Shown here: positions 1 through 24,848 of the stretch, one piece after another | How positions within the stretch are numbered: the stretch's first letter is position 1 | Layout: each line of letters opens with the position of its first letter | Sequence record: PP400787 | Direction: 5' to 3' (one strand) | Source: Escherichia phage FL23 | DNA: 64,000 bases | Position numbers and translations under genes: made by a program | The notes under the pieces: generated by a model | What the model was told of the DNA's origin: nothing | The model's database searches: none | What the model saw: only the letters and a program-made list of their open reading frames with translations

Positions 1-1
1 T

Positions 2-91
2 CTACGCGATCTTTATATTGCGATGAACGAAGAAATGATAAAAGAGCTAAAACGTCAACTGAAGGTGATTCAATTTGGCCAGGGAAATTAA
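2..91 (+). CDS. 3' end of an upstream early ORF, 5'-truncated by the window edge (ends ...VIQFGQGN*)
   Basis: Open frame from position 2 to TAA at 89-91; synteny (arn.x region upstream of arn). Confidence 0.3.
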   Translation, partial: LRDLYIAMNEEMIKELKRQLKVIQFGQGN

Positions 92-293
92 TTCAAAATC
101 CGATTATTTTAACTCTCTCAATGATAAAGATAAAAATCTAATACGGCATTTTATTGTTGAGATGGGATATACCGATACACGCGATTTAAGAGAACATATA
201 TTTGAATGTGGTGTAGCTAAAAAGTTTTCATTCACATGCAAATGTTTAAGAGAGGTAATTCAGCACTATGAACAATTTAGTCGCAAAACATAA
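75..293 (+). CDS. hypothetical small protein; start uncertain (TTG at 75, alternative ATG at 162)
   Basis: ORF track; AAGG 9 nt upstream of TTG; no recognisable motif. Confidence 0.35.
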   Translation: MAREINSKSDYFNSLNDKDKNLIRHFIVEMGYTDTRDLREHIFECGVAKKFSFTCKCLREVIQHYEQFSRKT

Positions 294-376
294 TTTTAAT
301 AAAGCTTCTGTTCATAAGGATAAGAAGAAAGCGTTTAAAGAATCTAATCGCAAACAGAAACATAAGGGGAAGGTCT

Positions 377-655
377 ATGATTATTGATTCTCAATCCGTG
401 GTTCAATACACAATCAAAATTGATATTCTAGAAAAGCTATATAAGTTTCTACCAAACCTATACCATTCAATTGTTAATGAATTAGTTGAAGAACTACATC
501 TTGAGAATAATGATTTCTTAATTGGAACTTATAAAGACCTCTCAAAAGCAGGATATTTCTACGTAATTCCAGCTCCAGGAAAAAGTATTGATGATGTATT
601 AAAAACTATAATGATTTATGTCCATGATTATGAAATTGAAGATTATTTCGAATGA
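377..655 (+). CDS. arn: Arn-like anti-restriction protein (92 aa, acidic)
   Basis: 92-aa ORF next to asiA, sequence recognised as T4 Arn-like; SD AAGGGGA before ATG. Confidence 0.65.
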   Translation: MIIDSQSVVQYTIKIDILEKLYKFLPNLYHSIVNELVEELHLENNDFLIGTYKDLSKAGYFYVIPAPGKSIDDVLKTIMIYVHDYEIEDYFE

Positions 656-804
656 GTCATAATCTTGAAAAGGTAATCGAGCATAATGTAGCTCAGGAAC
701 GTAAGTCGTTCAAGGAATTCGTAGAAAAAATTTTTGAAGAAAATAACACAGACCAGTTTACAAATCAAGCGTCTGATGATATTATAACAAAGTCAACTAA
801 TTGA
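652..804 (+). CDS. small hypothetical ORF (50 aa) between arn and asiA
   Basis: ATG overlaps arn stop (ATGA); not in ORF track (below length cutoff). Confidence 0.35.
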   Translation: MSHNLEKVIEHNVAQERKSFKEFVEKIFEENNTDQFTNQASDDIITKSTN

Positions 805-816
805 GTGGTATAGTTA

Positions 817-1089
817 ATGAATAAAAACATTGATACAGTTCGTGAAATTATTACTGTTGCGTCTATTTTGATTAAATTTTCCAGAGAAGATATTGTTGAG
901 AATCGTGCTAATTTTATTGCATTTCTGAATGAGATTGGAGTAACGCATGAAGGTAGAAAATTAAATCAGAATTCATTCCGTAAAATTGTTTCTGAATTAA
1001 CTCAAGAAGATAAGAAAACCCTCATCGACGAATTCAACGAGGGTTTTGAGGGTGTATATCGATATCTAGAGATGTATACGAACAAATAA
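817..1089 (+). CDS. asiA: AsiA anti-sigma70 factor / MotA co-activator
   Basis: 90-aa protein MNKNIDTVREIITVASILIKF...EMYTNK recognised as T4 AsiA. Confidence 0.9.
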   Translation: MNKNIDTVREIITVASILIKFSREDIVENRANFIAFLNEIGVTHEGRKLNQNSFRKIVSELTQEDKKTLIDEFNEGFEGVYRYLEMYTNK

Positions 1090-1746
1090 TTATTTAGCCC
1101 TTCCTAATATTCTGGCCGCCTGAGCACATATTGATTCAAGGCGGTCATTACTTATATGATCATTTCTATACCAGTACATGGTTATCGTTCCAGCATAGAT
1201 ATTATCCAAATTAAAATATGGACAACTGTACATGTAGTTTATTTCGGGAGTAGGCTTTTTAGTTGGTAAAAAAGCAAATTTTGAGTTGGAATAATAATGA
1301 CGTCCATTTAAATGAACTGCATATTCATCCATAGTTTTATCAACAGGATATCCTCCAAGTGATTTTTCACTTATTGTTGAAGGTAATTTTCCTTCATATG
1401 CTATAATATCAACAAAATAGTTTAAGTTTTTAGGGCGGAAAGAATACACCGCACTAAAGTCTGCCTCAGATGATATATGAACTATCTGGAGTTGTTCCAG
1501 GGCGACAGATTCAAAGCGTGCATTTCTTTCCTTTTCAATAATTTCACTGTATGTTTCATACTTTGATTGCTTGTAGTACTCAAAGAAACTATCTCCCCTA
1601 TACCAAACAATCGCCATTATAAACAAAAGAATTACGACAGCTACCCGGGAAGCAAGAACTTTCCCGGTAGCGTTATCTTTGAACAAGCGATCTAGAACAC
1701 CAAACAGAATATCAGAGGGCGAAAATGATATTCTAGGTGCTGCCAT
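1090..1746 (-). CDS. t: holin t
   Basis: 218 aa, N-terminal MAAPRISFSPSDILFGVLDRLF and one TM segment; T4 holin; downstream of gene 38. Confidence 0.9.
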   Translation of the reverse strand: MAAPRISFSPSDILFGVLDRLFKDNATGKVLASRVAVVILLFIMAIVWYRGDSFFEYYKQSKYETYSEIIEKERNARFESVALEQLQIVHISSEADFSAVYSFRPKNLNYFVDIIAYEGKLPSTISEKSLGGYPVDKTMDEYAVHLNGRHYYSNSKFAFLPTKKPTPEINYMYSCPYFNLDNIYAGTITMYWYRNDHISNDRLESICAQAARILGRAK

Positions 1747-1776
1747 AGACCCTCCTTTTAAGGATATTTATTCAAA

Positions 1777-2553
1777 TTATACTCTTGGACCATATATTGC
1801 TCCAACATTTATCCACGTTGGAGCAGACCCTATAACAGCATAACCAGCAGCGCCGCCATTATATTCAGATCCTTGACCGCGAATATTGCATCTACCTCCC
1901 GCGGAACCTACTTCACCACCGTTTCCGCCGTTATAGATACCATTCACGGATCCTGAGCCAGGTGCAGAAATAGTACCACCAGTCGCGCCTGATTGCATAT
2001 CAATAGATCCGCCTGGCGCACCAAAAGGACGACCGCCACCGCCGCCAAAGGTCAATCTCATTTGTGAAAAAGGAGAATAATATCCGCCGCCACCGCCGCC
2101 GCCACCGCCTGCAATAGCTCCACCATTATTAATTCTTAGTCTCCCACCAATATCGTTTTGAATACAATGACCTCCAGCTGAGCCAGGACTATTGCTACCG
2201 CCATTCCCGCCACGACCATACATCGTTACGCCGTGTATATTTAACTGAACATATTCATTCGGTGTATCTCCGTACATGAAGAATAAAGGAACATCTTTAG
2301 AATATGATACTAAATCTCCAGTGATATTAAACACTATAGGTGCACTACCTGCCTCAAAACATCTATCTCGGAACCATTGACCATTGAAGTTATGGTCTGC
2401 TCCAAGCGTGTGAATTACTTCAACAGATCGACCTATCATATTACTCATCCAAAATGGAATTCCCATTCTCAATCTCTGCGCGGCACCACCCATCCAAGGG
2501 TCTCCAGTTTGTACCCTCGCAGACCATCCTACCCACGGTCCTTCAACTGCCAT
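1777..2553 (-). CDS. 38: gp38 receptor-recognising adhesin, glycine-rich (T2/T6 type rather than the T4 assembly-chaperone type)
   Basis: Poly-Gly tracts ([23 protein letters not shown]) typical of gp38 adhesin glycine-rich motifs; start at second ATG (2553) preceded by GGAGG; ORF track start 2583 probably too far upstream. Confidence 0.8.
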
Positions 2554-2565
2554 ATAAACCTCCAA

Positions 2566-2579
2566 GGGGCCGAAGCCCC
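2566..2579 (-). other. GGGGCUUCGGCCCC tetraloop hairpin in the 37/38 intercistronic region, immediately 5' of the gene 38 SD
   Basis: Plus strand ggggccgaagcccc; 5-bp GC stem with UUCG loop on the minus-strand mRNA. Confidence 0.7.
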
Positions 2580-2584
2580 TCATT

Positions 2585-5500
2585 TTATTTTAACAATGAT
2601 TTGACTAATTTTTTAAGCTCTTCAATCTCTGACTTAAGTTCCGCAATTTCTGTAGTATGTTCATTTATTGCAGCTGTATTTAAACCAATTACACCGTTAT
2701 AGTTCAAACGAAGTAAAGCTTCGCCATCAGGGTCACCTTCAACTAATTCTGGTAAAATAGCTTGAACTTCTTGGGCTATCAAACCGGCGTTAGGTTCCCA
2801 TTTCTGATTGCCTTCTTCGTCCGTTCCACGTTTCTGCATATAAGTGTAACCGTTAATTTTAGAAAGCTTCTGAGAAGCATTTTCAAATTTAACAAGGTCT
2901 TTTTTAACACGAATATCAGAACGGACATAAACATCACGGACAAACGTTGAATAACTATCATTTGCCTGAACGAGATGCCCATGAGAAACGATAGCTCTTC
3001 CAACTTCTGTCCAAAAAGCACCGGTTGAATCCCAAAGCCCAGGATGAGATTGATAGCCTGCTCCCCAGTTTGCAATATGTACACCATTGGCAACCATGTT
3101 AATTCGCCCATCACCACCATGAACTAATCCGGTATCATTATCACCAATAACAAGACATGGTCCAGTCCACGCCGGGTCACCACCGCCAGCCGATAATCTT
3201 GCTCCGGCTTTAACCATGTCAGGAACGTACATGTTTCCATTATAGTGGAATTCGAAGATAGCTTGTGGGTCGGAACCGTTTTCCTGATTACCTACACGAA
3301 TAATACCTTGTGCCCAGTTATTAGGAATGCGTCGCATACCAAAATCAACACCAGATACGTATCCTTCATTCGTAATAACAGATTTTCCTTTGATAATTGG
3401 ATAATAACTATCATTACCGACGTAGCCAAAATCCACAAATATCGGAGCTTCCTGGCGCCATTGATTTCCCCAATCGCCGGCCTGGTGACTGGTCCAGACA
3501 GAGCCATTAATAAAAAGTCGGTCCCTATTAAAATTAAAAGTGGCAGACCCTTCCGGGTTTAAAGCAATATCACCACCATTATTAACATATATGCCTGATC
3601 TATTTTGGAAACTATAAAACGATATGGCATTATCAGCACCACCATTACCTACATACCAGTTATCAACGCCTGCTTTTTGTCCTTTCAAATAGCCAGATTC
3701 GGTTGCCGCGCTATTAATAACGATGGCATCAGAGTTTGCATTAAGAGTTAAGCGACCTGTCAGCGTATCGCCTTCTTTTGAAACACGGCTATAGACAGCA
3801 CCAAGAAGATTGGTTATATCACCGGAAGAATTAAACGTTTTCCAGATATCAGACCAGATGTTACCATTGCGACCAATAGTAGCTTCACCACCACCAACCT
3901 GGACATTATCAGGGAAGTTAACAGTACCGTCTTGATTAAAACGAGACGTATGGCCTTGTGATCCATCTTCTTTCAGATGATGAATAACGAATGTACCCGA
4001 ATTAATTTCAGTACCTAAAGACCAAACGGCTTTACCGTTTAAAAACTTCTGTTTAACAATAGGATAATATTTGCTTACAGCATCATCATCGATTTCCTGG
4101 AAAATAGGAGCCGCTTGAACATATTGAATATCATAACCACCAGCGCCTGCGCCATGACCAGTAAATTTAATATAGCCGTTTGCTGCGAACGTATTGTAAC
4201 TTGATTGTAAATCTGGAATAGTAACTTTACCAGTATCTAAAGCCATACTAAACGGGCGAAGTGGACCGATATCACCATTTTTACCTTCACCATAAGCAGT
4301 TGGAATAATATGAAGACTTCCTTCTGAACGTCTAAAAATAGCTCCATAATCTGCATTCCAAATGCGAAGAGCATTCACTGCTCCAGATGAAATTTCGCCT
4401 GTTGTGTGAACTCCCCTATTTCCAGCAGTAACACCAGATGATTCAAATGAACCGTTAACGTTCATTTCTACTTCACCTGTTGTAAGTCTTTGAATATAGC
4501 TCATCCAACTAGTTGCATCAGAAATTTCCATGACATTTTTACGATTACCTACACTAGGATTAGTAAACGTATTACCCCAAACAGAAATTGTCATATTATC
4601 AACTGAACTACTACCAGTTGTGTTACCTCTAAACAACAGTGTAGAAGCATTATTTATACCATCGATATTAACAGAACCACCAATAACGTCAATATTACCA
4701 GGAGTAACTAACAAACCGCCATGAGTATTAATGTTTGTAGTACCCTTACCACGGAAATAGTGATGATAATTACCGCCTTGATAATATCCTAAAAGAGTCT
4801 GACCATCTCCAAACGCGTTATTATCGTGGTATGTCACTACAGTAGCAAGAGCATAATTTTCAGTTGGAGGAGTAGTTAAATCGGTTCCGTTAGTAGAATA
4901 TCCAGCTACAAATTTTCTTAGGCTAGTTGTTTCGCTTGGACTAAATAAAAACGTTTTTGTGCCATTGTTAACACTGAAATAATATCCGTCTTGATGCCAT
5001 TTAAATCCAGTATCATTATCTCCTAAAGCAATTGAGGACGTTCCTAATTCAGAATATCCTTTAGGGCCGCCTGGGGTGCCTATAGAAATAGAATGACCCG
5101 CTTTCAATCCACCGGACCATGTAAACGACCAAAGATAAGCGTCAAGTCCATCACCTGCATACCAAGTTATCCCATCATTGTCTTTAACCTCATGAAAAAT
5201 ACCTGCACCTACGGCATTACGCATGACACGAAGATGATTAATAGCAGTAGTGCTTTCAGATAATGGGGTGTTATTTGCTAATGAATAGATATCATAATCT
5301 CCTGCCTTCTTCCCGTTTGTAATAACTTTGTCGGTCAGAATTTGTGGAGACGAAATAGATTTCCATGCTGATACTTCAGGTGAAGTAAATAGGCCACTGC
5401 CTGAAAATGCATAAGTGCTTTCGCTACCAGCGGCGTAGTCTTGAACCCTGATATTAAGTACTTGTGTAGTTAAACCATCATTAGCCGGGGAATAAATGAT

Positions 5501-5896
5501 TCCACGTTCGCGACTATTGCCATCGAAAAAACGAACATGCGCTGTACCTGAACTTTTTGTAATAAGTTCTCCGCCTTCAGTCATAATCTGCCCAGCAGCA
5601 ATAATATCGCGAGTTACTCGAGCAATACCAGTTAAATTAAAATTACCAGTCTGAGTGAAGGTGCCATCTAAAGTATAATCGCCAGTTTGGTTATAATTGC
5701 CTGTATGAATAACATTCCCGTCAATACTACCGCCTTTAGCAAAACCCAGATCAATAATATTTCCTTGGTCATCTTTAGTAAAAAGTACACGGTCTTTTAA
5801 GTTTATAGCCAATTCACCTTCGGCTAATACTGAAGCGGCAGGACGTGCTCCTGCAGTTTTGCTTCTTTTAAATTGTATTTGTTTTAAAGTAGCCAT
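2585..5896 (-). CDS. 37: gp37 long tail fibre distal subunit with C-terminal coiled-coil/intramolecular-chaperone-like end
   Basis: 1103 aa; N-terminus [13 protein letters not shown]...[12 protein letters not shown] is gp37-like; C-terminus ...[21 protein letters not shown] rather than a T4-type His-box tip. Confidence 0.9.
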
Positions 5897-5904
5897 AAGT
5901 CCTC

Positions 5905-6561
5905 TTAATAATAGCCGAAATCTTGAACAGAATCCTTAATAACAATTTGATCAAATCGTGGAACATGTGAGGGTTGAGATGCAGGATTCTGTGAAAAAAG
6001 GTTTGGCGCAGTTAAATTTCCTGTCATAGTGTCTCCAGAGCGTAATACCCTAGAGTTTGCGTTTGCTGTAACAATATTTATTGCTCCATCAACATAATCT
6101 TTCCGCGTAAGGTCATAATTATTTACTGGTGATAACGAAGTTACACGGATTTGTGATGCTTCAATTACACCCTTTGAGCTAATATCTCCATTTCGCGTGT
6201 TAATTACTACAGTTCTACCTGCTGTTCCTTGTGATGATTTAAAACCAATACCATACCACGAAACAATATCCATATTTGTAGTATCATACGTGGCACTATC
6301 ACCAGGACCAGCAAAAATACCATTATCACCTGACCCTGCGCCAGGAACAGTCATTCCTTTATTAAAAATTACTTTATTTAAATAAGTACCACCATTAGCT
6401 TTAGAAACGAAATCGTTATCAGCAGCTTGCGGTTTATTGTATTCTGAATATATTTTAAATGATTTATAGAGTACATCGTCACCGGCTGGATTCAATGGAA
6501 AATTTCCTTGATGCCAAATGACAGAGCCTCCGGTTGTTGAACCTACTTTTAAATCAGCCAT
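5905..6561 (-). CDS. 36: gp36 long tail fibre distal connector
   Basis: 218 aa, position between 35 and 37, sequence recognised. Confidence 0.85.
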   Translation of the reverse strand: MADLKVGSTTGGSVIWHQGNFPLNPAGDDVLYKSFKIYSEYNKPQAADNDFVSKANGGTYLNKVIFNKGMTVPGAGSGDNGIFAGPGDSATYDTTNMDIVSWYGIGFKSSQGTAGRTVVINTRNGDISSKGVIEASQIRVTSLSPVNNYDLTRKDYVDGAINIVTANANSRVLRSGDTMTGNLTAPNLFSQNPASQPSHVPRFDQIVIKDSVQDFGYY

Positions 6562-6584
6562 TGTATGCCCCTTTATTTTAATAG

Positions 6585-6592
6585 TATTTATA
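6585..6592 (-). promoter_or_regulatory. late promoter TATAAATA for genes 36-37-38
   Basis: Plus strand tatttata, about 24 nt upstream of the gene 36 ATG. Confidence 0.6.
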
Positions 6593-6595
6593 AAG

Positions 6596-6618
6596 AAAAA
6601 GGGAACCCGAAGGCTCCC
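6596..6618 (-). terminator. hairpin GGGAGCCUUCGGGUUCCC plus U-run after gene 35
   Basis: Plus strand aaaaagggaacccgaaggctccc; stem with one G-U wobble, UUCG loop. Confidence 0.6.
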
Positions 6619-6623
6619 TCAAT

Positions 6624-7739
6624 TTAAACTTCTCTAAATTCTTGTCCAAACACTTTACCAGTTTTAGACGATGCTTGTGTAGGAAGTACCATTATATCTG
6701 GAGGTGAAGCAGATTCACAGACATAATTAACGCGAATACCGTTGACGCCAAATTCAGCAGGTTTTGAAATGCCGCCATTTCTTGATACTTCAGAAAAGCT
6801 TAAATTTCTCATGCCTCCTTGACCTGCTTGGGCAGTTCTTTGTGCATATATCGTAAATCCTACCGCATTTTCAGGAACAACTACATAGTCTTCCTTTAAT
6901 TCCCATGACCCAGCTTGACCAGTAAACTCAGCATGTGTTGAAGAAATATATCCATCCGATTCATTATAAAATCTAATGGATATATTCGTAGTTCCAAGAG
7001 CAAGTAAATCAGCATCAGCATATAGTTGTGCTTTAAGATAAAGAACATCGCCTGGAATTAAATTATAATCAGATAATTTACTTATAGCAGCTGAAGTTGG
7101 TAGACGCGCAATTTCGTTATTAGTTCCACCAACCGCTGACATAAACTGCTCAACGCTTTCATATGTTCTTCTTGGAAACCCGGTAGCTCCGACGTCTTCT
7201 AAACTGTCAAATACAACATCTAAAATAGTTTGATAATCATCCGTGCTTTTTCTGTTGCTCAGTTTAACATGCTCTAATGCGATAGCTCTTTTAGAAGAAG
7301 TGTAAAAAGCAGCATATGATACATCAAATCTTGACAATACAGAGTCAGATGGAAAAGCAGACGTTCCTGCTGTTCTTAACCAAGATACTACTTCAGGAGG
7401 AAAATTAACCTTTCCGCTAGTTAATATAGCAACAATTCTATTATTCGTCAAAGAATTCATGAAACTAACAAAAGCGGCTGATGTAGTATCATTTGAAGTA
7501 GAAAAAGCATATGACTTACTATCAACTAATGCTCCTGTAGAGGGATCAAAAACTCTTAAATGAAGACCTGCGCTAAATGTTTGATTTCCTACAGGATTAT
7601 CCTGAAATTTAACATATGGTCCTGCGGTAGAAAGCGGGCAAGAACCCGCTATACTTATTTTGTATCTTACTGAATTGCTTTCCGATAAAAATGGCGTTTG
7701 GACATATCCTTGTCCAAACTCTGCCATAAATTTTTCCAT
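6624..7739 (-). CDS. 35: gp35 long tail fibre hinge connector
   Basis: 371 aa, synteny 34-35-36. Confidence 0.85.
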   Translation of the reverse strand: MEKFMAEFGQGYVQTPFLSESNSVRYKISIAGSCPLSTAGPYVKFQDNPVGNQTFSAGLHLRVFDPSTGALVDSKSYAFSTSNDTTSAAFVSFMNSLTNNRIVAILTSGKVNFPPEVVSWLRTAGTSAFPSDSVLSRFDVSYAAFYTSSKRAIALEHVKLSNRKSTDDYQTILDVVFDSLEDVGATGFPRRTYESVEQFMSAVGGTNNEIARLPTSAAISKLSDYNLIPGDVLYLKAQLYADADLLALGTTNISIRFYNESDGYISSTHAEFTGQAGSWELKEDYVVVPENAVGFTIYAQRTAQAGQGGMRNLSFSEVSRNGGISKPAEFGVNGIRVNYVCESASPPDIMVLPTQASSKTGKVFGQEFREV

Positions 7740-7747
7740 AATACCTC

Positions 7748-10700
7748 TTATTCAACCCATTCAAATTTAACAGTTTTATTCACTGGGTCAGGAACAATGC
7801 GAACATTACCAATTCGTAAGAAATCACGAATAGTAAGATTCCCCATTATAGCATTATCAGATGGTAAAGCACCAATATCAGATGGCTGAGGAGGGTTACC
7901 CCCATCAAATACTTGAACAAAACTTGACCAAGAGTTTTTGGTTTTCTGCCATGTACGTGTCCAACGAGTGGTACGTGCTTCTGGTGTTGTTGGATAAGTA
8001 ATCCAATCTTGGTAAAGCGAATCAAGTGTGTTACCAAACTGAGTCAGTGTACCAGGAGATTTAACTTCTTCGCCACGTTCTAAGTATGGAAGTCCAGTCA
8101 CTTCATTAGTTTTTTCAACCATTTTAAAATAACCAGGGAACTGGTTATAAGTGGCTGAATCGTTAATATCGATTGACCAGAATCCTACTGTATCAGATGT
8201 TGGTGCGCGGGTGTATAAATCAGATGTTTTAGTACCCTGAGAACGAATTCTCGAGTTAACAGTTAAACCACCGCTGTTAATTGTTGCTCCACCTTTACTA
8301 ATGATAAGCCCTTCACCAATTGTAACTTGACCGGATTGATTATTAATTGATAATGGACGTAATCCATTAAATCCACCAAACTGATCACCGGCTGCAGTGA
8401 GCATAAAATAGGTGTCATTACCAGCATTACGAATAAAGAATCCGTAATTTCCATTTATTGCTCTAAAAGCATTTGCTGATTTACTGGTAAATTCTCCATT
8501 AGCAGTAACTGAATTACCAAATGTTGCAACGCCATTCGCATTCAATGAACCAGAAGCATTTACATCTATCGGCATTACAGTACCATTGATATTAAACAAT
8601 ATCTTTCCAGCTGTATTGCGCTGAGAATAAAAGTGATGAGATGTTTCATCACCAACTTCAAATACAGTAGAACGCGTTGAATCTGGTCTGCCACTAAACT
8701 GGTTTCCCCAAACTTTGATAGTCATCGTCTGCGCTGGGTTAGTTTCAGTTTGAGGTCCTTTCTCAAAAATCAGACGAGCTGCTGTTCCAGTTTTAGAAAT
8801 AGTTAATGTATTTACCGAAACTGAACCACCAAACGTAGCAGTACTAGATGATACAAGAGGGGCACTCAGATTCGTTTGTTGGGTTAAGGTTAGTGAACCA
8901 TTAACCGTCTGTGCAATATCCCTACGAATGAACTGAGATGAATCTAGACCATCCAATAAATTACTATCTACAGCTTTTGCTTTTAACGGCAGATAATTTG
9001 CTAATACACGGTTTAATTCATATGGTGATATTGCATAGCTATTTTTCTCATATGATTCTAATGGCTGTGTTGAACCTACCGTATCATTACCAACGAACGT
9101 AATTGAACTAGATGAAGTTTTAACAAAACCTCTTATCGCAGTAGTAGCTGCCCAGGTAGGTTCACTCTGCACAATCCATTTTAAATTTTTTGGAGATACA
9201 GCAGTATTTGCTGACGTTCCAGTCACAGTTTCAGACTGAGTTGCAACTTTAATAACGCCTTCCTGTGCTTCAGTAGATTTAGTACCTAAAAGCTTTTTAG
9301 GAGTTATTAGAACATTATCCAATGTTCCTGCAGCAGCTTCAACTTGTGTAGCTACACGAAGTGTACCACGCTGTGTCTCATTTGCTTCAAGAATATTAAG
9401 GGTATAATGGTCCCAGAGAGTTCCTGATTCAACTAATCCAGATAGAGCAACAACAGAAGTACGATCAGTACTATTAAATCTGGTTTTAATTTTTAATGGT
9501 GTAGAGATACGAGTATCGTCGACGCCTGCGTCGAATTCAACTTGCGTAGCAATTTCAGCTATACCACTTAAACTTTCAGTTGCTCTACGGTCATTTAAAG
9601 TTTTAGGAGTGACTGCACGAGTATAGTCAGTTCCTGTATTAACTTCACTTTGCGTAGCAATTTCAATTAAACCAATTCTTCCATCAGTTGATGTCTTTTT
9701 ATGTAACGTTTCTGGCGTTACAACAGCATTTGCCCATCCTTGCTGACTTTGTCCAGCAATTACTTCACTTTCAACTGCTAAAATTACTGCACCCTGTTGA
9801 GTAGGCGTAGCTTTATACTGATCCAAAGCTTTAGGTGAAACAACTAAATTATTAGTGTTTTTATTATAAACATTCGTACCATTTAATTCACGGCTAGAAG
9901 CTGGAGTAGCTCCTGCAGTAGATACAAAAGTTACAATACCAGATAATGATTCAGAACCTTGACGAGCTTGAAGCTTTTTAGGAGTGATGATTGTAGTATC
10001 ATCAGTACCTGCATTAGTTTCTTGCTGCGTAGCAATTTCAGCAACACCTCTACGAGTTTCTGTAGCAGTTCTTTCATTCAGCTTTTTAGGAGTAATGATA
10101 AGGTCATCTGCAAAAGAGAATGTGGTGTTCTGATTCACTTGAGCAGTAGTTGCTATTCTTGCAATACCTCTACGAGTTTCAGTAGCAGTACGATTAGCTA
10201 ACGTTTCTGGAGTAATTGCTAATTCTTTTTGTGGAGAATTTTCTAAATCGACATTAGCTTGAGCTTGTGTAGCTAAAGCAATTACGCCTAATCTTGCTCT
10301 AGTAGAATCATTTAAAGAATCTACTCTTTCTACAGTTGGAACGTTTTGCTGTACAACCCAGTATTTTCCATCAGAATCTTCTATATAAGCAAGTTGTAAA
10401 ACTGGAACATAATTAGTTTCGCCATTAAAAACTAATTCTTGGACTGTAACCCATTTAGTTTCAGGCGGATATTCTGAACGTTTTGGGAATTGCAGCAATT
10501 GAACTGAAGAAGCAATTTTATCTTCATCAGCAGCTTTGATTTTAACTGTTTGTCCTTTTCTCATGTAATTCATGGAAATTTTAACAGTATCACCAACAGA
10601 AATATCAGTCGGAAGCTGAAGCTCAATTGTCTGAGCTGTTCCGTTATTCGCACCAAATACCATAACTTCTTCATTTGGACGAATATTAGAATTAGTTGTT

Positions 10701-11617
10701 ATAATACGTAAACGCGCTTTACTATCCCCGTCAAACAATCTCCACAATTTCTCATTATCATCAAACATCAAGAAACCGTCAATCGTTGTACGGCCTTCAA
10801 TGGAATGAGTTCCAACTTCTTGTATTGAAGTCGTTTCATCGTATGTAGTAACAATTGTATGATAAAGCGGATTTAGTTTATCTAAATCGACGAAATTAAT
10901 AATATCGCCATGATTAGCAAATCTTGGAAGTTTAACATTAATTGGTGCAGCAGAAGTAAATCTACGCACGATAAAATCGTTGGATTGCGCTTGATAAGTA
11001 TTCGCTGGTGTTACAACTATAGCTTCTCTACTATAATCAGCAACATACATTTGCCACAGACGATTACTAAAAATTAAAACTAGCTGTGACTTTGGATGAG
11101 TCATTAGTACTGAACGTACCTGTTCACCTCTAAAGTTTACAATACTTTGCACTGGAGCTACAATTAAAACTTGGTTAACTCCAGGTTTTCCTCCAATATC
11201 TTGGAGAACGATAGTATCACCATCAATTGGAGAAGATGGTAAAGTAAACGTGATGTCATTTCCAGCTGCGGTGTTAACCGAAATTGCTTCACCCGATTTT
11301 AATTGATATGAACCAGATGAAACCGTAATCCAGTTAGCATCGGTACGTAATGCTCTCCAGCGTCCGCTATTAAAAGCTCCTGCTGGTTTTGGAATATCAT
11401 TTATAGCAGCCCAAAAGCGGTTATCATAAATGATTACAAAATCTTTTAAATATCCACGAGTTGGATCATATTGTTGAACTGTGTTTTCTTGAATTAAGTA
11501 ATCAACGTTAACACCGTCAGTTCCTACGGTACGATCAGCTAAAGCTACGTTGATTATTTTATCGCCACCTGCGTCCAGACCATCTTCTGCTCTGAACTTT
11601 CTTTTAATCTCGGCCAT
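7748..11617 (-). CDS. 34: gp34 long tail fibre proximal subunit
   Basis: 1289 aa; N-terminus MAEIKRKFRAEDGLDAGGDKIINVALADRTVGTDGVN; internal ~40-aa tandem repeats. Confidence 0.9.
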   Translation of the reverse strand: MAEIKRKFRAEDGLDAGGDKIINVALADRTVGTDGVNVDYLIQENTVQQYDPTRGYLKDFVIIYDNRFWAAINDIPKPAGAFNSGRWRALRTDANWITVSSGSYQLKSGEAISVNTAAGNDITFTLPSSPIDGDTIVLQDIGGKPGVNQVLIVAPVQSIVNFRGEQVRSVLMTHPKSQLVLIFSNRLWQMYVADYSREAIVVTPANTYQAQSNDFIVRRFTSAAPINVKLPRFANHGDIINFVDLDKLNPLYHTIVTTYDETTSIQEVGTHSIEGRTTIDGFLMFDDNEKLWRLFDGDSKARLRIITTNSNIRPNEEVMVFGANNGTAQTIELQLPTDISVGDTVKISMNYMRKGQTVKIKAADEDKIASSVQLLQFPKRSEYPPETKWVTVQELVFNGETNYVPVLQLAYIEDSDGKYWVVQQNVPTVERVDSLNDSTRARLGVIALATQAQANVDLENSPQKELAITPETLANRTATETRRGIARIATTAQVNQNTTFSFADDLIITPKKLNERTATETRRGVAEIATQQETNAGTDDTTIITPKKLQARQGSESLSGIVTFVSTAGATPASSRELNGTNVYNKNTNNLVVSPKALDQYKATPTQQGAVILAVESEVIAGQSQQGWANAVVTPETLHKKTSTDGRIGLIEIATQSEVNTGTDYTRAVTPKTLNDRRATESLSGIAEIATQVEFDAGVDDTRISTPLKIKTRFNSTDRTSVVALSGLVESGTLWDHYTLNILEANETQRGTLRVATQVEAAAGTLDNVLITPKKLLGTKSTEAQEGVIKVATQSETVTGTSANTAVSPKNLKWIVQSEPTWAATTAIRGFVKTSSSSITFVGNDTVGSTQPLESYEKNSYAISPYELNRVLANYLPLKAKAVDSNLLDGLDSSQFIRRDIAQTVNGSLTLTQQTNLSAPLVSSSTATFGGSVSVNTLTISKTGTAARLIFEKGPQTETNPAQTMTIKVWGNQFSGRPDSTRSTVFEVGDETSHHFYSQRNTAGKILFNINGTVMPIDVNASGSLNANGVATFGNSVTANGEFTSKSANAFRAINGNYGFFIRNAGNDTYFMLTAAGDQFGGFNGLRPLSINNQSGQVTIGEGLIISKGGATINSGGLTVNSRIRSQGTKTSDLYTRAPTSDTVGFWSIDINDSATYNQFPGYFKMVEKTNEVTGLPYLERGEEVKSPGTLTQFGNTLDSLYQDWITYPTTPEARTTRWTRTWQKTKNSWSSFVQVFDGGNPPQPSDIGALPSDNAIMGNLTIRDFLRIGNVRIVPDPVNKTVKFEWVE
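9250..10330 (-). repeat. in-frame tandem repeats within gene 34 (about six ITPxxLxxRTATETRRGxAxIAT units)
   Basis: Repeated DNA, e.g. cctctacgagtttctgtagcagt near 10041 and 10161; protein-level repeats. Confidence 0.6.
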
Positions 11618-11651
11618 TCTCCCGGGCTCCTATTGTGTTTTCAATAATAAG

Positions 11652-11659
11652 TATTTATA
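11652..11659 (-). promoter_or_regulatory. late promoter TATAAATA for gene 34
   Basis: Plus strand tatttata, 35 nt upstream of the gene 34 start. Confidence 0.6.
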
Positions 11660-11662
11660 CTT

Positions 11663-11692
11663 GTTTACTTTAAGATTTGGATGGTATATAAT
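11663..11692 (+). promoter_or_regulatory. early promoter for rnh (GTTTACT-N17-TATAAT)
   Basis: gtttact ttaagatttggatggta tataat. Confidence 0.55.
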
Positions 11693-11721
11693 AGAAATCT
11701 CACTAATTGAACGAGGTTCAT

Positions 11722-19800: not shown

Positions 19801-20080
19801 ATATAAATCCGACTTTGATGTTAATATTCACCGTGGTACATTTTGGGGAAATTACGTCGGTAAAGATGCTGGCAGCCGGGAGGCTGCCATTGAATTATTC
19901 AAAAAAGATTTTATACGTCGAATTAAATCCGGAGAAATAACTAAAGCACATTTAGAGCCTTTACGTGGAATGAGGCTAGGATGCACATGTAAACCAAAGC
20001 CGTGTCATGGTGATATAATAGCTCATATAGTTAACCGATTGTTTAAAGACGATTTTCAAGTTGAGGACTTATGCAATTAA
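19754..20080 (+). CDS. DUF4326-like protein (C-terminal [12 protein letters not shown] signature)
   Basis: Motif recognition: WGNY... and L.C.C.P..CHGD; overlaps upstream ORF by 47 nt. Confidence 0.5.
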
Positions 20081-21504
20081 TTAATGTTATCAAAAGTAGT
20101 GGTGTTTCTCAGAGCTTTGACCCGCAAAAAATTATTAAAGTTTTATCTTGGGCAGCTGAGGGAACATCAGTAGATCCTTATGAATTATATGAAAATATTA
20201 AATCATATCTCCGTGATGGAATGACCACTGATGATATTCAGACTATTGTCATTAAGGCCGCTGCGAATTCTATTTCGGTTGAAGAACCTGATTATCAATA
20301 TGTAGCTGCACGCTGTTTAATGTTTGCTCTTCGTAAGCATGTTTATGGGCAGTATGAACCACGTTCATTTATTGACCATATTTCTTACTGTGTAAATGAA
20401 GGTAAATATGACCCTGAATTATTGTCAAAATATTCAGCAGAAGAAATTACATTTTTAGAATCAAAAATTAAGCACGAACGGGATATGGAATTTACTTATT
20501 CCGGGGCGATGCAATTAAAAGAAAAATATCTAGTTAAAGATAAAACCACTGGTCAAATTTATGAAACTCCGCAGTTTGCATTTATGACTATTGGAATGGC
20601 ACTGCATCAAGATGAACCTGTTGACAGATTAAAACATGTTATTCGTTTTTATGAAGCAGTATCTACTCGACAGATTTCACTGCCAACTCCTATTATGGCT
20701 GGTTGCCGTACTCCAACTCGACAGTTTAGTTCATGCGTTGTTATTGAAGCAGGTGATTCGCTGAAGTCTATCAATAAGGCTTCTGCTTCAATTGTTGAGT
20801 ATATTTCTAAACGAGCTGGAATTGGCATTAACGTTGGTATGATTCGTGCTGAAGGTTCTAAGATTGGCACAGGTGAAGTGCGTCATACTGGCGTTATTCC
20901 TTTTTGGAAACATTTTCAGACTGCTGTTAAATCATGCTCACAGGGTGGAATTCGTGGCGGCGCTGCTACTGCTTATTATCCTATTTGGCATTTGGAAGTT
21001 GAAAATCTTCTCGTTTTGAAAAATAACAAAGGCGTAGAAGAAAACCGTATCCGTCATATGGATTATGGCGTCCAGCTGAATGATTTGATGATGGAACGTT
21101 TTGGAAAGAACGACTACATCACTTTGTTCAGTCCACATGAAATGGGTGGCGAACTTTATTATTCTTATTTTAAAGACCAAGACCGTTTCCGTGAATTGTA
21201 CGAAGCAGCAGAAAAAGACCCTAATATTCGTAAAAAGCGTATTAAAGCTCGTGAACTATTTGAATTGCTCATGACTGAACGTTCAGGAACAGCAAGGATT
21301 TATGTACAGTTCATTGATAATACGAATAACTATACTCCGTTTATTCGTGAAAAGGCGCCTATTCGTCAGAGTAACTTGTGCTGTGAAATTGCTATTCCAA
21401 CAAATGATGTGAATAGCCAACAAACCCGTTTAATCAAAATTAAGAAGTCGGATGTAGCTAAGTTTTATGAAGCTAATCCTGGCGGTATAATTCAAAGCAA
21501 ATAA
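20071..21504 (+). CDS. nrdA: ribonucleotide reductase large subunit, N-terminal piece (nrdA-a)
   Basis: ATP-cone; FSSCVVIE (Cys225 equivalent); SNLCCEIAIPT (Asn/Cys/Glu active site); then 28 non-conserved codons to stop. Confidence 0.85.
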   Translation: MQLINVIKSSGVSQSFDPQKIIKVLSWAAEGTSVDPYELYENIKSYLRDGMTTDDIQTIVIKAAANSISVEEPDYQYVAARCLMFALRKHVYGQYEPRSFIDHISYCVNEGKYDPELLSKYSAEEITFLESKIKHERDMEFTYSGAMQLKEKYLVKDKTTGQIYETPQFAFMTIGMALHQDEPVDRLKHVIRFYEAVSTRQISLPTPIMAGCRTPTRQFSSCVVIEAGDSLKSINKASASIVEYISKRAGIGINVGMIRAEGSKIGTGEVRHTGVIPFWKHFQTAVKSCSQGGIRGGAATAYYPIWHLEVENLLVLKNNKGVEENRIRHMDYGVQLNDLMMERFGKNDYITLFSPHEMGGELYYSYFKDQDRFRELYEAAEKDPNIRKKRIKARELFELLMTERSGTARIYVQFIDNTNNYTPFIREKAPIRQSNLCCEIAIPTNDVNSQQTRLIKIKKSDVAKFYEANPGGIIQSK

Positions 21505-21549
21505 AGTACACAGACCGTTAATAAATAATCCATAACAAGAGGAAAAGTT

Positions 21550-22260
21550 ATGGATTATTTTAAAATTTACAATAACCTTATTTCTAAAGCTAAGAATAGA
21601 AAATTAGATTGCTATACCGAATCACACCATATTATACCTCTGTGTATTGGTGGTTCTGATACAAAGGAAAACCTGGTAGATTTGACACCAGAAGAGCATT
21701 ACATAGCTCATCAATTATTAGTAAAGATATATCCAGATAATCATAAATTGATATTTGCCGCTAATATGATGTGTGTTTATTCTAAAGATAATATTGAACG
21801 AAAGAACACCAATAAACGCCATGGGTGGCTTAGAAGAAAATTGGCTATTTCTGTATCTGAAAATAATAAAGGCAAACCAGCTTGGAACAAAGGTATTCCT
21901 ATGTCTCCAGAAGTTAAATCTCGACTTCAAACATCTTGGGTGTTTACATTTCCGGATGGTCATGAGGAAATTCATCGAGGTCTTAACGAATTTTGTAAAG
22001 AGCATAATTTAAATCCATCTGCAATGTCAGCCGTTTGTAAAGGTAAACGGTCGCATCACAAAGGATTTAAGTGTAAGAAATTGGATAAGATTTCAGAGCT
22101 TGATAATTTAGTTTTCGTCAGTAAACCTCATCCAAAGGGATTAAAACCCCATAACTTAATTGCTGTAAAAATAAACGGTATAGAATATCAATCAATACAT
22201 CGAGCATCTAAAGCTTTAGGAATTACTAGAAAAAAGGTAGAAGAATTAAATGAATATTGA
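21550..22260 (+). CDS. HNH homing endonuclease inserted within nrdA (MobE-like)
   Basis: CYTESHHIIPLCIGGSDTKENLVDLTPEEHYIAH HNH motif; SD GAGGA; stop overlaps nrdA-b start. Confidence 0.8.
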   Translation: MDYFKIYNNLISKAKNRKLDCYTESHHIIPLCIGGSDTKENLVDLTPEEHYIAHQLLVKIYPDNHKLIFAANMMCVYSKDNIERKNTNKRHGWLRRKLAISVSENNKGKPAWNKGIPMSPEVKSRLQTSWVFTFPDGHEEIHRGLNEFCKEHNLNPSAMSAVCKGKRSHHKGFKCKKLDKISELDNLVFVSKPHPKGLKPHNLIAVKINGIEYQSIHRASKALGITRKKVEELNEY

Positions 22261-23239
22261 TTATGAATTTGTAGATGAATTTTACGAAGATGATGAGTAT
22301 ACTACAATAAAAGTTATTGAAAACAAGGGAGAAGTGGGGCTTTGTACTCTCTCTGCATTCGTACTAGATAATTTTGACTGGCAAGACCAAGATAAAATTA
22401 ATGAATTGGCAGAAGTTCAAGTTCGTGCTCTTGATAATCTTTTGGATTACCAAGGATATCCAGTTCCTGAAGCAGAAAAAGCTAAAAAGCGTCGTAACCT
22501 TGGTGTAGGTGTTACTAACTATGCAGCTTGGCTGGCAAGTAACTTTGCTTCTTATGAAGATGCTAACGATTTAACACATGAACTATTTGAGAGATTACAG
22601 TATGGACTCATTAAAGCATCCATTAAGCTCGCCAAAGAAAAAGGACCTTGCGAATATTATTCAGACACTCGTTGGTCTCGAGGCGAACTACCTATCGACT
22701 GGTACAATAAAAAGATTGACCAAATCGCAGCTCCAAAATACGTTTGTGACTGGTCGTCGCTGCGGGAAGACCTTAAGCTCTTTGGCATCCGTAATAGCAC
22801 ATTATCAGCACTTATGCCATGTGAGTCATCTTCCCAAGTTTCTAACAGTACAAACGGTATCGAGCCTCCACGTGGACCGGTAAGTGTTAAAGAATCAAAA
22901 GAGGGTTCATTTAATCAAGTTGTTCCGAATATTGAGCATAACATAGACCTTTACGACTATACATGGAAATTAGCTAAGAAAGGTAATAAACCTTATCTTA
23001 CGCAGGTAGCTATTATGCTGAAATGGGTATGTCAATCGGCTTCAGCGAATACATATTATGACCCACAGATTTTTCCAAAAGGAAAGGTTCCAATGTCAAT
23101 AATGATTGATGATATGCTATACGGATGGTATTATGGCATTAAAAATTTCTATTATCATAATACCCGCGATGGTTCTGGTACTGATGATTATGAAATAGAA
23201 ACTCCAAAAGCAGATGATTGTTCATCCTGTAAATTATGA
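22250..23239 (+). CDS. nrdA: ribonucleotide reductase large subunit, C-terminal piece (nrdA-b)
   Basis: Own ATG; resumes at GLCTLSAF (second active-site Cys) and runs to the C-terminal DDCSSCKL redox tail. Confidence 0.85.
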   Translation: MNIDYEFVDEFYEDDEYTTIKVIENKGEVGLCTLSAFVLDNFDWQDQDKINELAEVQVRALDNLLDYQGYPVPEAEKAKKRRNLGVGVTNYAAWLASNFASYEDANDLTHELFERLQYGLIKASIKLAKEKGPCEYYSDTRWSRGELPIDWYNKKIDQIAAPKYVCDWSSLREDLKLFGIRNSTLSALMPCESSSQVSNSTNGIEPPRGPVSVKESKEGSFNQVVPNIEHNIDLYDYTWKLAKKGNKPYLTQVAIMLKWVCQSASANTYYDPQIFPKGKVPMSIMIDDMLYGWYYGIKNFYYHNTRDGSGTDDYEIETPKADDCSSCKL

Positions 23240-24848
23240 TATAATTACCACAAGGATGTGGTTAACTAAGAATAACGCTATGTTTGATAATATATACAAA
23301 AACGGAAAGTTTCTTCCATTTGGAGAAGAAAAACTTAAATCTAGACTAACAGAAGAAGATAAAGCTCTTCTAACTGATGGAATAGATTTTAAGCTCAATG
23401 TGTTCCAAATTATGGAAGGCATTGACATTAACGATCTAAAATGTGCAGTTTGTGGAAATTTCATTTCTCTGAAAACGGCAAAGAAACGTGTATTTCCAGC
23501 AACATGTAGTAAATCCTGCGCAGGGATATTTTTCGCGGATAAGAGAATTCAAAGCCGTGATACAAATTTTGGCGGAAAAGAAAAATATAAAAAATATTTG
23601 TCTGAACTTCAACGCAAAAATTCTTTAGAAAAATATGGAACAACTCATCAAAAAATTTCAAGAAATAAAAATAGAAAAACTTTAATTGAACGATATGGGG
23701 TAACGCATAATTCACAATTAGAAAGTGTGAAAGAAGCGAGAAAAGTTATAGAAAACGGTAAATCAGTTGATATTCTGAATTCTAGAAAATCTCGCGAAAA
23801 ATCTAAGAAGACTAAATTAAATTGGACTGAAGAATATAAGGCATCGTTATATTCATCTATAGGAAAATCTATTAAAAATAACGGTCATATTAATCATGAT
23901 ATACTAGATAAAATCAATTACAAAATTTCTATAGAAGAACTACAACAATTAGCAAATTGTTCTCGGATGACGGCTTATAGAGCTCTTTCATCCAAAGGAC
24001 TAATTGACGTTCATTATACTCAAAGTTCTATAGAGCAATTCATTTTAGATCTAGGATTTGATTGCGTAGAAACTAGAAAAATTATTCCTCCGTATGAATT
24101 AGATATTTACATTCCTGAGAAAAAATTGGCTATAGAATACGATGGAATTTATTGGCATTCTAGCGGGTCAAAGGAAACAGATAAAATTAAAGAAACTTAT
24201 CATTTGATGAAGACAGAGATGTGTGAAGCACAAGGAATTCAATTACTTCACATCTTCGAAAATGAATGGATTGATGATACAAAAAGAGAGATCTGGAAAT
24301 CCATTATAAAGCATAAATTAGGATTATCAGAAAGAATACCAGCCCGAAAATGCAAAGCGCGTTTTGTTAATAAGGATGAGGCAAAAGAATTTATTAATAA
24401 GAATCATCTTCAAGGATTTTGCTCGGGAGCTCATACGTATAAAGGACTTTATTACAATAATGAGTTAGTTCAAATTATTTCTATCGGTAAATCTAGATAT
24501 AGCTCAGGTGATGAACTTTTAAGGATGTGTTCAAAATTAGGGATTTGTGTTGTAGGAGGAGCCTCAAAATTATTAAAAGGAATTAATTGTCTATCTTATG
24601 GCAATCGAAGATGGTGCAGTACATTATCAAATGTTTATGACTCTGTCATGGAATTTAGTCATATCTCTGAGCCGTGTTATTGGTATGTCGATAAAGGAGA
24701 GGTATTTCACCGCTCGAGCTATATGAAACATAAGCTTAAAAACAAGCTTAAAAATTATGATGATACAATAACTGAAGTAGAAAATTGTTATGCAAATGGT
24801 CTTAGAAGAATCTGGGACTGTGGAAATTTAGTTTACAGGACAAAATAA
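23214..24848 (+). CDS. large multi-domain putative nuclease (Zn ribbon, repeated YG(T/V)TH motifs, Vsr/DUF559-like core, C-terminal domain)
   Basis: CAVCGN...CSKSC; EKYGTTHQ/ERYGVTHNSQ repeats; LAIEYDGIYWH...LLHIFENEW; start ambiguous (23214, 23256 or 23280). Confidence 0.55.
   Translation: MIVHPVNYDIITTRMWLTKNNAMFDNIYKNGKFLPFGEEKLKSRLTEEDKALLTDGIDFKLNVFQIMEGIDINDLKCAVCGNFISLKTAKKRVFPATCSKSCAGIFFADKRIQSRDTNFGGKEKYKKYLSELQRKNSLEKYGTTHQKISRNKNRKTLIERYGVTHNSQLESVKEARKVIENGKSVDILNSRKSREKSKKTKLNWTEEYKASLYSSIGKSIKNNGHINHDILDKINYKISIEELQQLANCSRMTAYRALSSKGLIDVHYTQSSIEQFILDLGFDCVETRKIIPPYELDIYIPEKKLAIEYDGIYWHSSGSKETDKIKETYHLMKTEMCEAQGIQLLHIFENEWIDDTKREIWKSIIKHKLGLSERIPARKCKARFVNKDEAKEFINKNHLQGFCSGAHTYKGLYYNNELVQIISIGKSRYSSGDELLRMCSKLGICVVGGASKLLKGINCLSYGNRRWCSTLSNVYDSVMEFSHISEPCYWYVDKGEVFHRSSYMKHKLKNKLKNYDDTITEVENCYANGLRRIWDCGNLVYRTK

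Follow-up and report, generated by a model that had tools for sequence, protein, structure and literature searches.

A T2/T6-like distal tail-fibre block with a T6-type, Tsx-associated gp38 adhesin in Escherichia phage FL23

Introduction

Bacteriophage T4 binds its receptor directly through gp37, the protein that forms the distal half of the long tail fibre. The other arrangement found among T-even phages has been in the textbooks since the 1980s: gp37 releases the chaperone that forms part of it and carries a T2/T6-type adhesin. Drexler et al. reportedly found in 1986 that the gp37 of T2 is processed, and the structure of the fibre tip of Salmonella phage S16 was solved in 2018. Escherichia phages FL23 and FL44, which have identical Gp38 proteins, no longer form plaques on MG1655 without tsx (Lutz et al. 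2025, PMC12032242).

Here we analyse a 64,000-nucleotide stretch of FL23 DNA (record PP400787), which we refer to as the window. We are highly confident that it contains a T2/T6-like Tequatrovirus fibre block with a gp37 predicted to cleave itself, a gp38 that would dock on it as a T6-type Tsx adhesin, and a chimeric gene 38. The gene identities and domains in this reading were computed and the Tsx assignment comes from the literature, while cleavage, docking and contacts are proposed by homology.

Results

Genes 34 to 38, described in an earlier sequence-only reading of this DNA, are all present as open reading frames on the minus strand, and the sizes that reading gave for gp37 and gp38 were right. 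Gene 34 (7748..11617, 1289 aa; Pfam Gp34_trimer and Gp34_2nd) encodes the proximal half-fibre, gene 35 (6624..7739, 371 aa; 95-98% identical to gp35 of T4, T2 and T6) the hinge connector, gene 36 (5905..6561, 218 aa; Pfam Phage_T4_gp36, 1.5e-28) the distal connector and gene 37 (2585..5896, 1103 aa; PHROG 1699, "long tail fiber protein distal subunit", E = 0) the distal half-fibre subunit. Gene 38 (1777..2553, 258 aa), which Pfam, PDB and FL44 matches mark as encoding a monomeric tail-fibre tip adhesin, lies between gene 37 and the holin gene t (1090..1746, minus strand; Pfam Phage_holin_T, 2.1e-117), which adjoins it on the downstream side. The whole set had been assigned to positions 1777-5896; this holds for gp38 and gp37, but gp34 to gp36 lie outside, at 5905-11617.

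The same reading described a chimera of T4-like proximal and T2-type distal genes, a description we do not retain. At the protein level gp34 and gp35 are 93-98% identical to those of T4, T2 and T6 alike (gp34, 93-95%), and gp36 is 81-82% identical to that of T4 and T2. Since gp34 and gp35 are equally close to all three phages, this is the commonest Tequatrovirus layout and no special chimera; the block is the usual module for the distal long tail fibre in a T2/T6-like coliphage (Tequatrovirus). As the alignments described below show, the real mosaicism is within gp38 and gp37.

Two short elements lie between these genes. An exact match to the T4-type late promoter consensus, TATAAATA, is found at 6585..6592 (minus strand), 23 nt upstream of gene 36, and is likely the promoter of the 36-37-38 transcript; the consensus occurs 17 times across the 64-kb window against 9.8 expected, a modest excess over chance, so the assignment rests on the position of the site. 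The gp37-gp38 intergenic region (2554..2584, minus strand) contains a hairpin, GGGGC-UUCG-GCCCC, with a predicted folding energy of -14.1 kcal/mol (z -2.4), and after it a Shine-Dalgarno sequence, GGAGG; an equivalent stem-loop is annotated in the K3 record X04747. Rfam and tRNA scans of the window gave no matches. The mechanical open reading frame of gp38 is 268 aa long, with its ATG at 2583, but the true start is at 2553, giving 258 aa: GGAGG precedes it, the ten extra codons overlap the GGGGCUUCGGCCCC hairpin and homologues begin MAV...; the GenBank annotation of gene 38 is 777 nt long.

The first 50 residues of gp37 are 84-94% identical to those of T4, T2 and T6, and the remainder is about 35% identical. 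At its other end the protein matches Peptidase_S74 (PF13884, 2.1e-12 at aa 993-1052), and aa 914-1103 align with S16 gp37 (6F45_A, 4.5e-43) through the last residue. These matches delimit an intramolecular chaperone of 111 residues (aa 993-1103; 2588..2920, minus strand), which starts with the Ser-x4-Lys cleavage motif S993-D-I-R-V-K998 and ends in a helical heptad stretch, the part that the earlier reading had noticed. Around the motif the sequence reads DVYVR|SDIRVKK and lines up with the cleavage site of S16, DLNVS^SDRRIKK (PMC7917993), and we predict that gp37 is autocleaved between R992 and S993. The mature distal tip would then be about aa 914-992 (2921..3157, minus strand), the part that aligns with the distal fragment of S16 gp37 in 6F45_A, and by analogy with the S16 structure (PMC7917993) its last strand, DVYVR, may form the docking face for gp38. 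The claim that gp37 ends in a chaperone-like C-terminus and not in a T4 His-box tip is thus borne out by the Peptidase_S74 match and by a single HxH motif, compared with eight in T4 gp37.

The neighbouring gp38 matches the Pfam families GP38 (PF05268, 2.9e-71, profile positions 1-218 of 218) and Gp38_N (PF21721, 5.1e-20, profile positions 1-40 of 40), PHROG 2056 (9e-109), the S16 adhesin (PDB 6F45_D, 1.4e-50 over residues 1-255) and the receptor-binding domain of PP01 gp38 (PDB 9V85, 2.1e-78). The scores for the two gp38 Pfam families and for Peptidase_S74 are such that these assignments are not due to chance. By this measure gp38 is identified as a full-length tip adhesin of the T2/T6/S16 type, and its identity to two crystal structures suggests that it folds as a three-layer polyglycine-II sandwich. 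The full-length Pfam and PDB matches, together with the published Tsx requirement, support the view that gp38 is a T2/T6-type tip adhesin that sets receptor specificity.

Within gp38, the N-terminal attachment domain recognized by Gp38_N (aa 1-40; 2434..2553, minus strand), which would dock on the gp37 tip, has tryptophans at positions 7, 10, 20 and 35, with W7, W20 and W35 invariant across five aligned adhesins. This domain is 100% identical to that of FL18, 50% to those of T6 and Ox2 and 42% to that of T2, and it co-varies with the type of gp37 C-terminus. The specificity domain (aa 113-258; 1780..2217, minus strand), delimited by alignment with T6, T2, Ox2 and FL18, consists of five glycine-rich motifs (GRMs) that are conserved among these adhesins and four hypervariable segments (HVS) that vary. 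Their boundaries, which are approximate and alignment-defined, place GRM1 at 2197-2217, HVS1 at 2125-2196, GRM2 at 2083-2124, HVS2 at 2047-2082, GRM3 at 2020-2046, HVS3 at 1933-2019, GRM4 at 1915-1932, HVS4 at 1858-1914 and GRM5 at 1843-1857, all on the minus strand. The glycine-rich architecture noted in the earlier reading is confirmed: glycine accounts for 24% of the whole protein, rises to 34% within residues 113-258, and occurs in runs of nine and five; the nine-glycine run of GRM2 is encoded by a tandem Gly-codon repeat of CCG/CCA type (2084..2109, minus strand; TRF period 3/12).

The earlier reading had called the gp37 tip T2-type. Comparison with named phages shows the adhesin to be specifically T6-type and not T2-type: the gp38 specificity domain is 96% identical to that of T6 (which uses Tsx), 75% to that of FL18 (OmpA), 53% to that of Ox2 and 52% to that of T2, whose gene 38 was compared by protein alignment. 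T6 shares with the window the Tsx receptor and the specificity domain (aa 113-258), but its gp37 (994 aa) is only about 35% identical, its chaperone domain about 32%, and the tip and attachment subtypes differ. As subtype references we used K3 gene 37 (X04747) and gene 38 of Ox2 and M1 (X05675, X05676). The C-terminus of K3 gp37 is T2-like and only 28% identical to that of the window, the N-terminus of Ox2 gp38 and its gp37 tip are T6-like, and S16 is the closest of the tested references. For the gp37 tip and the gp38 N-terminus we considered the label "K3-like", a subtype named by Trojet et al., and dropped it as unconfirmed. S16, a Salmonella phage whose tip (PDB 6F45) served as structural template, resembles the window in the whole of gp38, the gp37 tip and chaperone, and the cleavage motif; its gp38, in contrast, binds Salmonella OmpC, with unrelated HVS, and its gp37 is much shorter. 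RB27, phiE142, KMB40 and ESH35 have the same gp37/gp38 type, with 91-95% nucleotide identity over the whole block and 94-97% protein identity in gp38; they diverge in patches, along the shaft of gp37 and in the 3' half of gene 38. The search for relatives yielded roughly 250 full-length sequences of gene 38. In FL18, a Mosigvirus that uses OmpA (PMC12032242), the nucleotide identity of gp37 is about 90%, and gp38 has the same protein sequence over residues 1-157, through HVS1 and the nine-glycine run; after the polyglycine tract, identity drops to 17% in HVS2, 66% in HVS3 and 68% in HVS4.

The HVS of the window are those of T6, with identities of 100% (HVS1), 92% (HVS2), 90% (HVS3) and 95% (HVS4). 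Adhesins for Tsx share essentially one HVS set (Trojet et al., PMC3157838); T6-like adhesins, including that of RB27 (94% identical to gp38 of the window), use Tsx (PMC3157838), as does KarlGJung (90% identical; PMC13353012). From these comparisons the window adhesin is assigned to the T6-like, Tsx-specific subgroup and not to the T2 type. Positions 1777-5896, a stretch of 4.1 kb, are 100% identical in nucleotides to Escherichia phage FL44 (PP400790.1), whose gp37 (XAO17930.1) and gp38 (XAO17931.1) are identical to those of the window. The checks that the sequence-only reading proposed for the receptor are, for this sequence, already in print: infection of E. coli K-12 needs Tsx, and tsx was the only deletion among 12 receptor knock-outs listed as abolishing infection by FL23 and FL44 (PMC12032242). 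The Tsx requirement of phages with this exact gp38 has thus been known since 2025.

Gene 38 changes its closest relative along its length. At codon 113 divergence from T6 falls from 32% to 4.5%, the switch to T6 identity lying exactly at GRM1, and divergence from FL18 rises from 3% to 34% at codon 157, where the max-chi2 breakpoint is located (window position 2083; reached in 0/200 permutations). In the max-chi2 analysis and the codon mismatch map, the Gly-codon repeat at 2084..2109 coincides with this breakpoint against the OmpA-type adhesin of FL18, and divergence begins exactly where the 27-nt Gly-codon repeat ends. Among the five pairwise breakpoints that we examined, those against T6, FL18 and ESH35 are located on GRMs 1, 2 and 3, and two (codons 35 and 103) fall outside any GRM. 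The suggestion that specificity is swapped at the Gly-codon repeats fits this pattern.

Discussion

The closest described systems suggest how this fibre tip might be built. Assisted by the 111-residue intramolecular chaperone at its C-terminus, gp37 would trimerise; the chaperone would then cut itself off between Arg992 and Ser993 and so expose a flat gp37 tip. One gp38 monomer could plug into this tip through its tryptophan-bearing N-terminal domain, its GRMs building a polyglycine sandwich core that displays four hypervariable loops, and these T6-type loops would attach to Tsx, a nucleoside channel of E. coli. The autocleavage, the geometry of docking and the contacts between loops and receptor are proposed here by homology to S16 and to T6 and T2.

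T4 offers a different way to read these genes, in which gp38 would serve only in assembly, as a chaperone that does not enter the virion, and the receptor would be bound by the C-terminus of gp37. The window has the T4 gene order 37-38-t, and T2-type gp38 is also reported to help gp37 assemble (PMC7917993). Nevertheless, the best E value of gp38 against the 183-aa T4 gp38 is 0.98 (BLASTP) and it matches the adhesin family over its full length; gp37 gives no significant alignment with aa 810-1026 of T4 gp37 (the needle tip), T4 has no nucleotide match between 1777 and 5700, and the HxH count of gp37 also speaks against a T4-type tip. Homology of gp38 to the T4 chaperone-type protein and a receptor-binding tip on gp37 were the two observations that the earlier reading had named as contradicting it; we looked for both and found neither. 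On sequence grounds neither gp38 nor the gp37 tip resembles its T4 version, and we reject a T4-type organization as having next to no chance of being correct. A less drastic departure from the Tsx reading would be a polyspecific adhesin, for which Tsx is the main receptor on K-12 while substitutions add affinity for OmpA, LPS or a non-E. coli porin, on the precedent of PST or fPS-65, with a host range wider than "Tsx" implies. PST is only three residues away from T6, in HVS2 and HVS3, and gains recognition of OmpA and of Yersinia (Trojet et al., PMC3157838); fPS-65, with a gp38 that is 90% identical, requires LPS heptoses on Yersinia. The specificity domain of the window differs from that of T6 at six residues (S163, D185, A197, N204, N232 and I248), of which S163 lies in HVS2 and D185, A197 and N204 in HVS3, and its HVS1 matches that of FL18, an OmpA user, at every residue. 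Set against this is the standing of tsx as the sole infection-abolishing deletion for FL23 and FL44, and we consider polyspecificity unlikely, though far less so than a T4-type organization.

We read gene 38 itself as a natural chimera, in which a non-T6 attachment half, matched to its own type of gp37, was joined at GRM1 to a T6-type specificity half. The breakpoints at GRMs match the recombination model that Tétart and Krisch published. The GRMs are conserved for structural reasons, and boundaries between variable and conserved sequence would adjoin them under any mechanism; with only five pairwise breakpoints, those at codons 35 and 103 not in a GRM, the sharp changes in identity could be attributed to diversifying selection on the HVS of a vertically inherited gene 38. 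The changes, however, are reciprocal: nucleotide identity is about 97% with FL18 in the 5' half of the gene and about 95% with T6 in the 3' half, synonymous sites included, with 32-34% divergence on the far side of each junction, and FL18 belongs to another genus, its gp35 being only about 60% identical in nucleotides. Point mutation therefore cannot account for the junctions, and we regard selection on a vertically inherited gene as very unlikely. Whether gene 38 records a recent exchange between genera at the polyglycine tracts, linking the Tsx adhesin of this Tequatrovirus with the OmpA adhesin of the Mosigvirus FL18, strikes us as evenly balanced. The window phage (a Tequatrovirus) and FL18, both isolates from Danish pig faeces, have gp37 and gene 38 up to codon 157 in common, with about 97% of the nucleotides identical. 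If the junctions are true crossovers, they would represent a clean natural receptor switch, from Tsx to OmpA or the reverse, within the GRMs.

As a discovery the block is of small value, its architecture being known and the receptor of this exact protein having been published in 2025. It does provide a worked example of how the hypervariable segments of gp38 reveal which receptor a T-even phage uses, and the module boundaries at GRM1 and GRM2 are natural graft points for new specificity in host-range engineering.

Lastly, we note that the window and FL44 differ in one respect. Positions 14001-64000 show 0 mismatches to FL44, and elsewhere in the window the two sequences differ only within gene 34, so that a replaced gp34 allele, differing by 254 nt and 75 aa, is the sole local difference; the link to the experiments with FL44 therefore runs through the identity of gp37 and gp38 and not of the whole phage. 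Although their adhesins are identical, FL23 and FL44 have been reported to differ in ECOR host range, and the replaced gp34 allele might contribute to this difference.

The distal fibre tip and its receptor

We find that gene 38 (1777-2553, minus strand; 258 aa) encodes a tip adhesin, as a sequence-only reading of this DNA had proposed, and not a chaperone of the T4 type. Its product matches the whole Pfam GP38 adhesin profile (2.9e-71) as well as Gp38_N (5.1e-20), aligns end to end with the adhesin in the crystal structure from Salmonella phage S16 (6F45_D; 1.4e-50) and, from residue 37 onward, aligns with the receptor-binding domain of PP01 gp38 (9V85; 2.1e-78). A Trp-bearing N-terminal attachment domain is followed by a beta-helix segment and then by a region in which four hypervariable segments (HVS) are set apart by five glycine-rich motifs (GRMs). 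Comparison with gp38 of T4, the chaperone, showed no similarity (E 0.98), let alone a full-length alignment.

Gene 37 (2585-5896, minus strand; 1103 aa) likewise departs from T4. The first 50 residues of gp37 are 84-94% identical to those of T4, T2 and T6, while over the remainder identity drops to ~35% and nucleotide matches almost vanish. There is one HxH motif versus eight in T4 gp37, and no alignment to the T4 needle, which bears out the suggestion that gp37 lacks a T4-type receptor-binding tip. The ending that had been described as coiled-coil and chaperone-like is the helical end of the last 111 residues, which constitute a Peptidase_S74 intramolecular chaperone (Pfam match at residues 993-1052). 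The junction DVYVR|S993-D-I-R-V-K998 lines up with the S16 autocleavage site DLNVS^SDRRIKK. Among the references compared, this tip and chaperone are closest to S16; the T2/K3 and T6/Ox2 forms are just ~28-32% identical. We also note that gp37 residues 418-561 (4214-4645, minus strand) match the C-terminal trimerisation domain of gp34 (Pfam Gp34_trimer, 1.5e-07; PDB 4UXE and 5NXF, ~1e-11), and this domain is thus common to the proximal and distal half-fibres.

The alignment of gp38 variable segments with adhesins of known specificity, proposed earlier, points to Tsx. Over the specificity domain (residues 113-258), identity is 96% to T6 (Tsx), 75% to Escherichia phage FL18 (OmpA), 53% to Ox2 (OmpA) and 52% to T2 (FadL/OmpF), and HVS1 to HVS4 are 100, 92, 90 and 95% identical to those of T6. 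The assignment is further supported by RB27 (gp38 94% identical), which Trojet et al. group with T6-like, Tsx-using adhesins (PMC3157838), and by KarlGJung (90%), also a Tsx phage (PMC13353012). The outer-membrane-protein knock-out experiment suggested earlier is already published: among twelve receptor knock-outs, neither FL23 nor Escherichia phage FL44 formed plaques on the MG1655 tsx deletion (PMC12032242). Additional receptors on other hosts are possible, since six residues of the specificity domain are unlike T6, PST was broadened to OmpA and Yersinia by just three HVS2/HVS3 changes (PMC3157838), and fPS-65, whose gp38 is 90% identical, needs LPS heptoses in Yersinia (PMC7917993).

By homology, gp37 would trimerise with the help of its C-terminal chaperone and, judging from motif and alignment, would cleave itself at R992|S993. 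One gp38 may then dock on the DVYVR tip via Trp prongs, as in S16, where it would display its T6-type loops on a polyglycine core; for the identical protein, published experiments show that infection depends on Tsx. The earlier observation is thus confirmed and its interpretation largely right, and these findings are standard, published knowledge for exactly this sequence.

Mosaicism of the fibre genes

A chimera of T4-like proximal genes with a T2-type tip had been proposed for 1777-5896. That interval holds genes 37 and 38, and the proximal genes fall just outside it. They are indeed T4-like (whichever of T4, T2 or T6 is compared, gp34 and gp35 are 93-98% identical, and gp36 is ~81% identical to T4 and T2), but this is true of every T-even and marks no such chimera; the adhesin is the group's prevailing form of gp38 (PMC3157838). 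The actual mosaicism lies within gene 38, not at the proximal/distal boundary. Maximum chi-square analysis of five pairwise comparisons, in each of which the observed value was reached in 0/200 permutations, placed breakpoints at codon 113 against T6 (GRM1, GRGGNGG; nucleotide divergence falling 5' to 3' from 32% to 4.5%), codon 157 against FL18, a Mosigvirus (the last Gly of a 27-nt Gly-codon repeat in GRM2; 3% to 34%), codon 172 against ESH35 (GRM3; 3.7% to 13.7%), codon 103 against PTE-Eco05 (9% to 42%) and codon 35 against KMB40 (24.5% to 7.9%). Gene 38 is therefore composed of two halves: an attachment half that is not of T6 type and goes with the gp37 type present here, and a specificity half that is of T6 type. 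In the sister adhesin of FL18, the receptor switches directly after the poly-Gly run. Three of the five breakpoints fit the proposed swapping at Gly-codon repeats, those at codons 103 and 35 lying outside any GRM. This agrees with the model of Tétart et al. (1996 and 1998; cited by PMC3157838 and PMC12032242) in which recombination is concentrated at GRMs, the five comparisons being an illustration and not proof.

A separate observation concerns the annotation of the FL18 adhesin (PP400780.1, 2697-3470). Its GenBank CDS begins at an internal Met (714 nt) and appears to be 5'-truncated by 20 codons, because the frame runs on upstream as far as the MAVEGPW... start that is also seen in the window.

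Relation to FL44

FL44 (PP400790.1) is a Tequatrovirus from Danish pig faeces, isolated on MG1655. The window is identical to it at every nucleotide of 1777-5896 and shows no mismatch over 14001-64000; within the first 12.9 kb the sole stretch unlike FL44 is 8264-11364, inside gene 34 (254 mismatches plus 8 gaps, which alter 75 amino acids). The window phage is therefore a sibling of FL44, in agreement with the description of FL23 by Lutz et al. (99.77% identity, Gp38 identical; PMC12032242). No database record searched exceeds a 98.1% match to the divergent stretch, and the N-terminal third of gp34 is 98-99% identical to T4 gp34 versus 90% to FL44. A replaced proximal-fibre allele thus sets apart two phages with the same adhesin, whose ECOR infection patterns are reported as different.

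Gene layout and expression

On the minus strand of 1-11700, the order of transcription is gene 34 (7748-11617; 1289 aa; Pfam Gp34_trimer and Gp34_2nd), 35 (6624-7739; 371 aa), 36 (5905-6561; 218 aa; Phage_T4_gp36), 37, 38 and holin t (1090-1746; Phage_holin_T). Exact T4 late-promoter boxes (TATAAATA) precede gene 34 by 34 nt and gene 36 by 23 nt, and from these positions genes 36-37-38 probably form a single late transcript. Between genes 37 and 38 (2554-2584, minus strand), immediately before the Shine-Dalgarno sequence of gene 38, is a GGGGC-UUCG-GCCCC tetraloop hairpin (-14.1 kcal/mol), whose equivalent is conserved in phage K3 and was annotated there decades ago as a potential terminator. 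Called mechanically, the gene 38 ORF reaches an ATG at 2583 (268 aa). The true start is that of the 258-aa form, since GGAGG precedes it and the ten additional codons cover the hairpin.

The nrd region

The nrdB gene (24848-26618, plus strand) consists of two exon-like ORFs (225 and 159 aa) ~620 nt apart, and td, as annotated in FL44, is likewise broken by an ORF for a homing endonuclease. Both interruptions are probably classic T-even group I introns, yet a search of the window at the Rfam gathering threshold gave no match. The gene for the large subunit of ribonucleotide reductase, nrdA (20071-23239, plus strand), is split into ORFs of 477 and 329 aa, the cut falling at about position 220 of the Pfam profile for the barrel domain, with a 236-aa I-HmuI/NUMOD-type homing endonuclease ORF between them (21550-22260). 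No group I intron was found there by Rfam at the gathering threshold, and the split is either an intron or a 'gene in pieces' of the kind reported for Aeromonas phage Aeh1. Between nrdA and nrdB, a 544-aa ORF (23214-24848, plus strand), 'hypothetical' in the FL44 annotation, hits PHROG 3339 'homing endonuclease' (6.8e-152) as well as a PHROG of HNH endonucleases; mobE, which occupies this position in T4, is far smaller.
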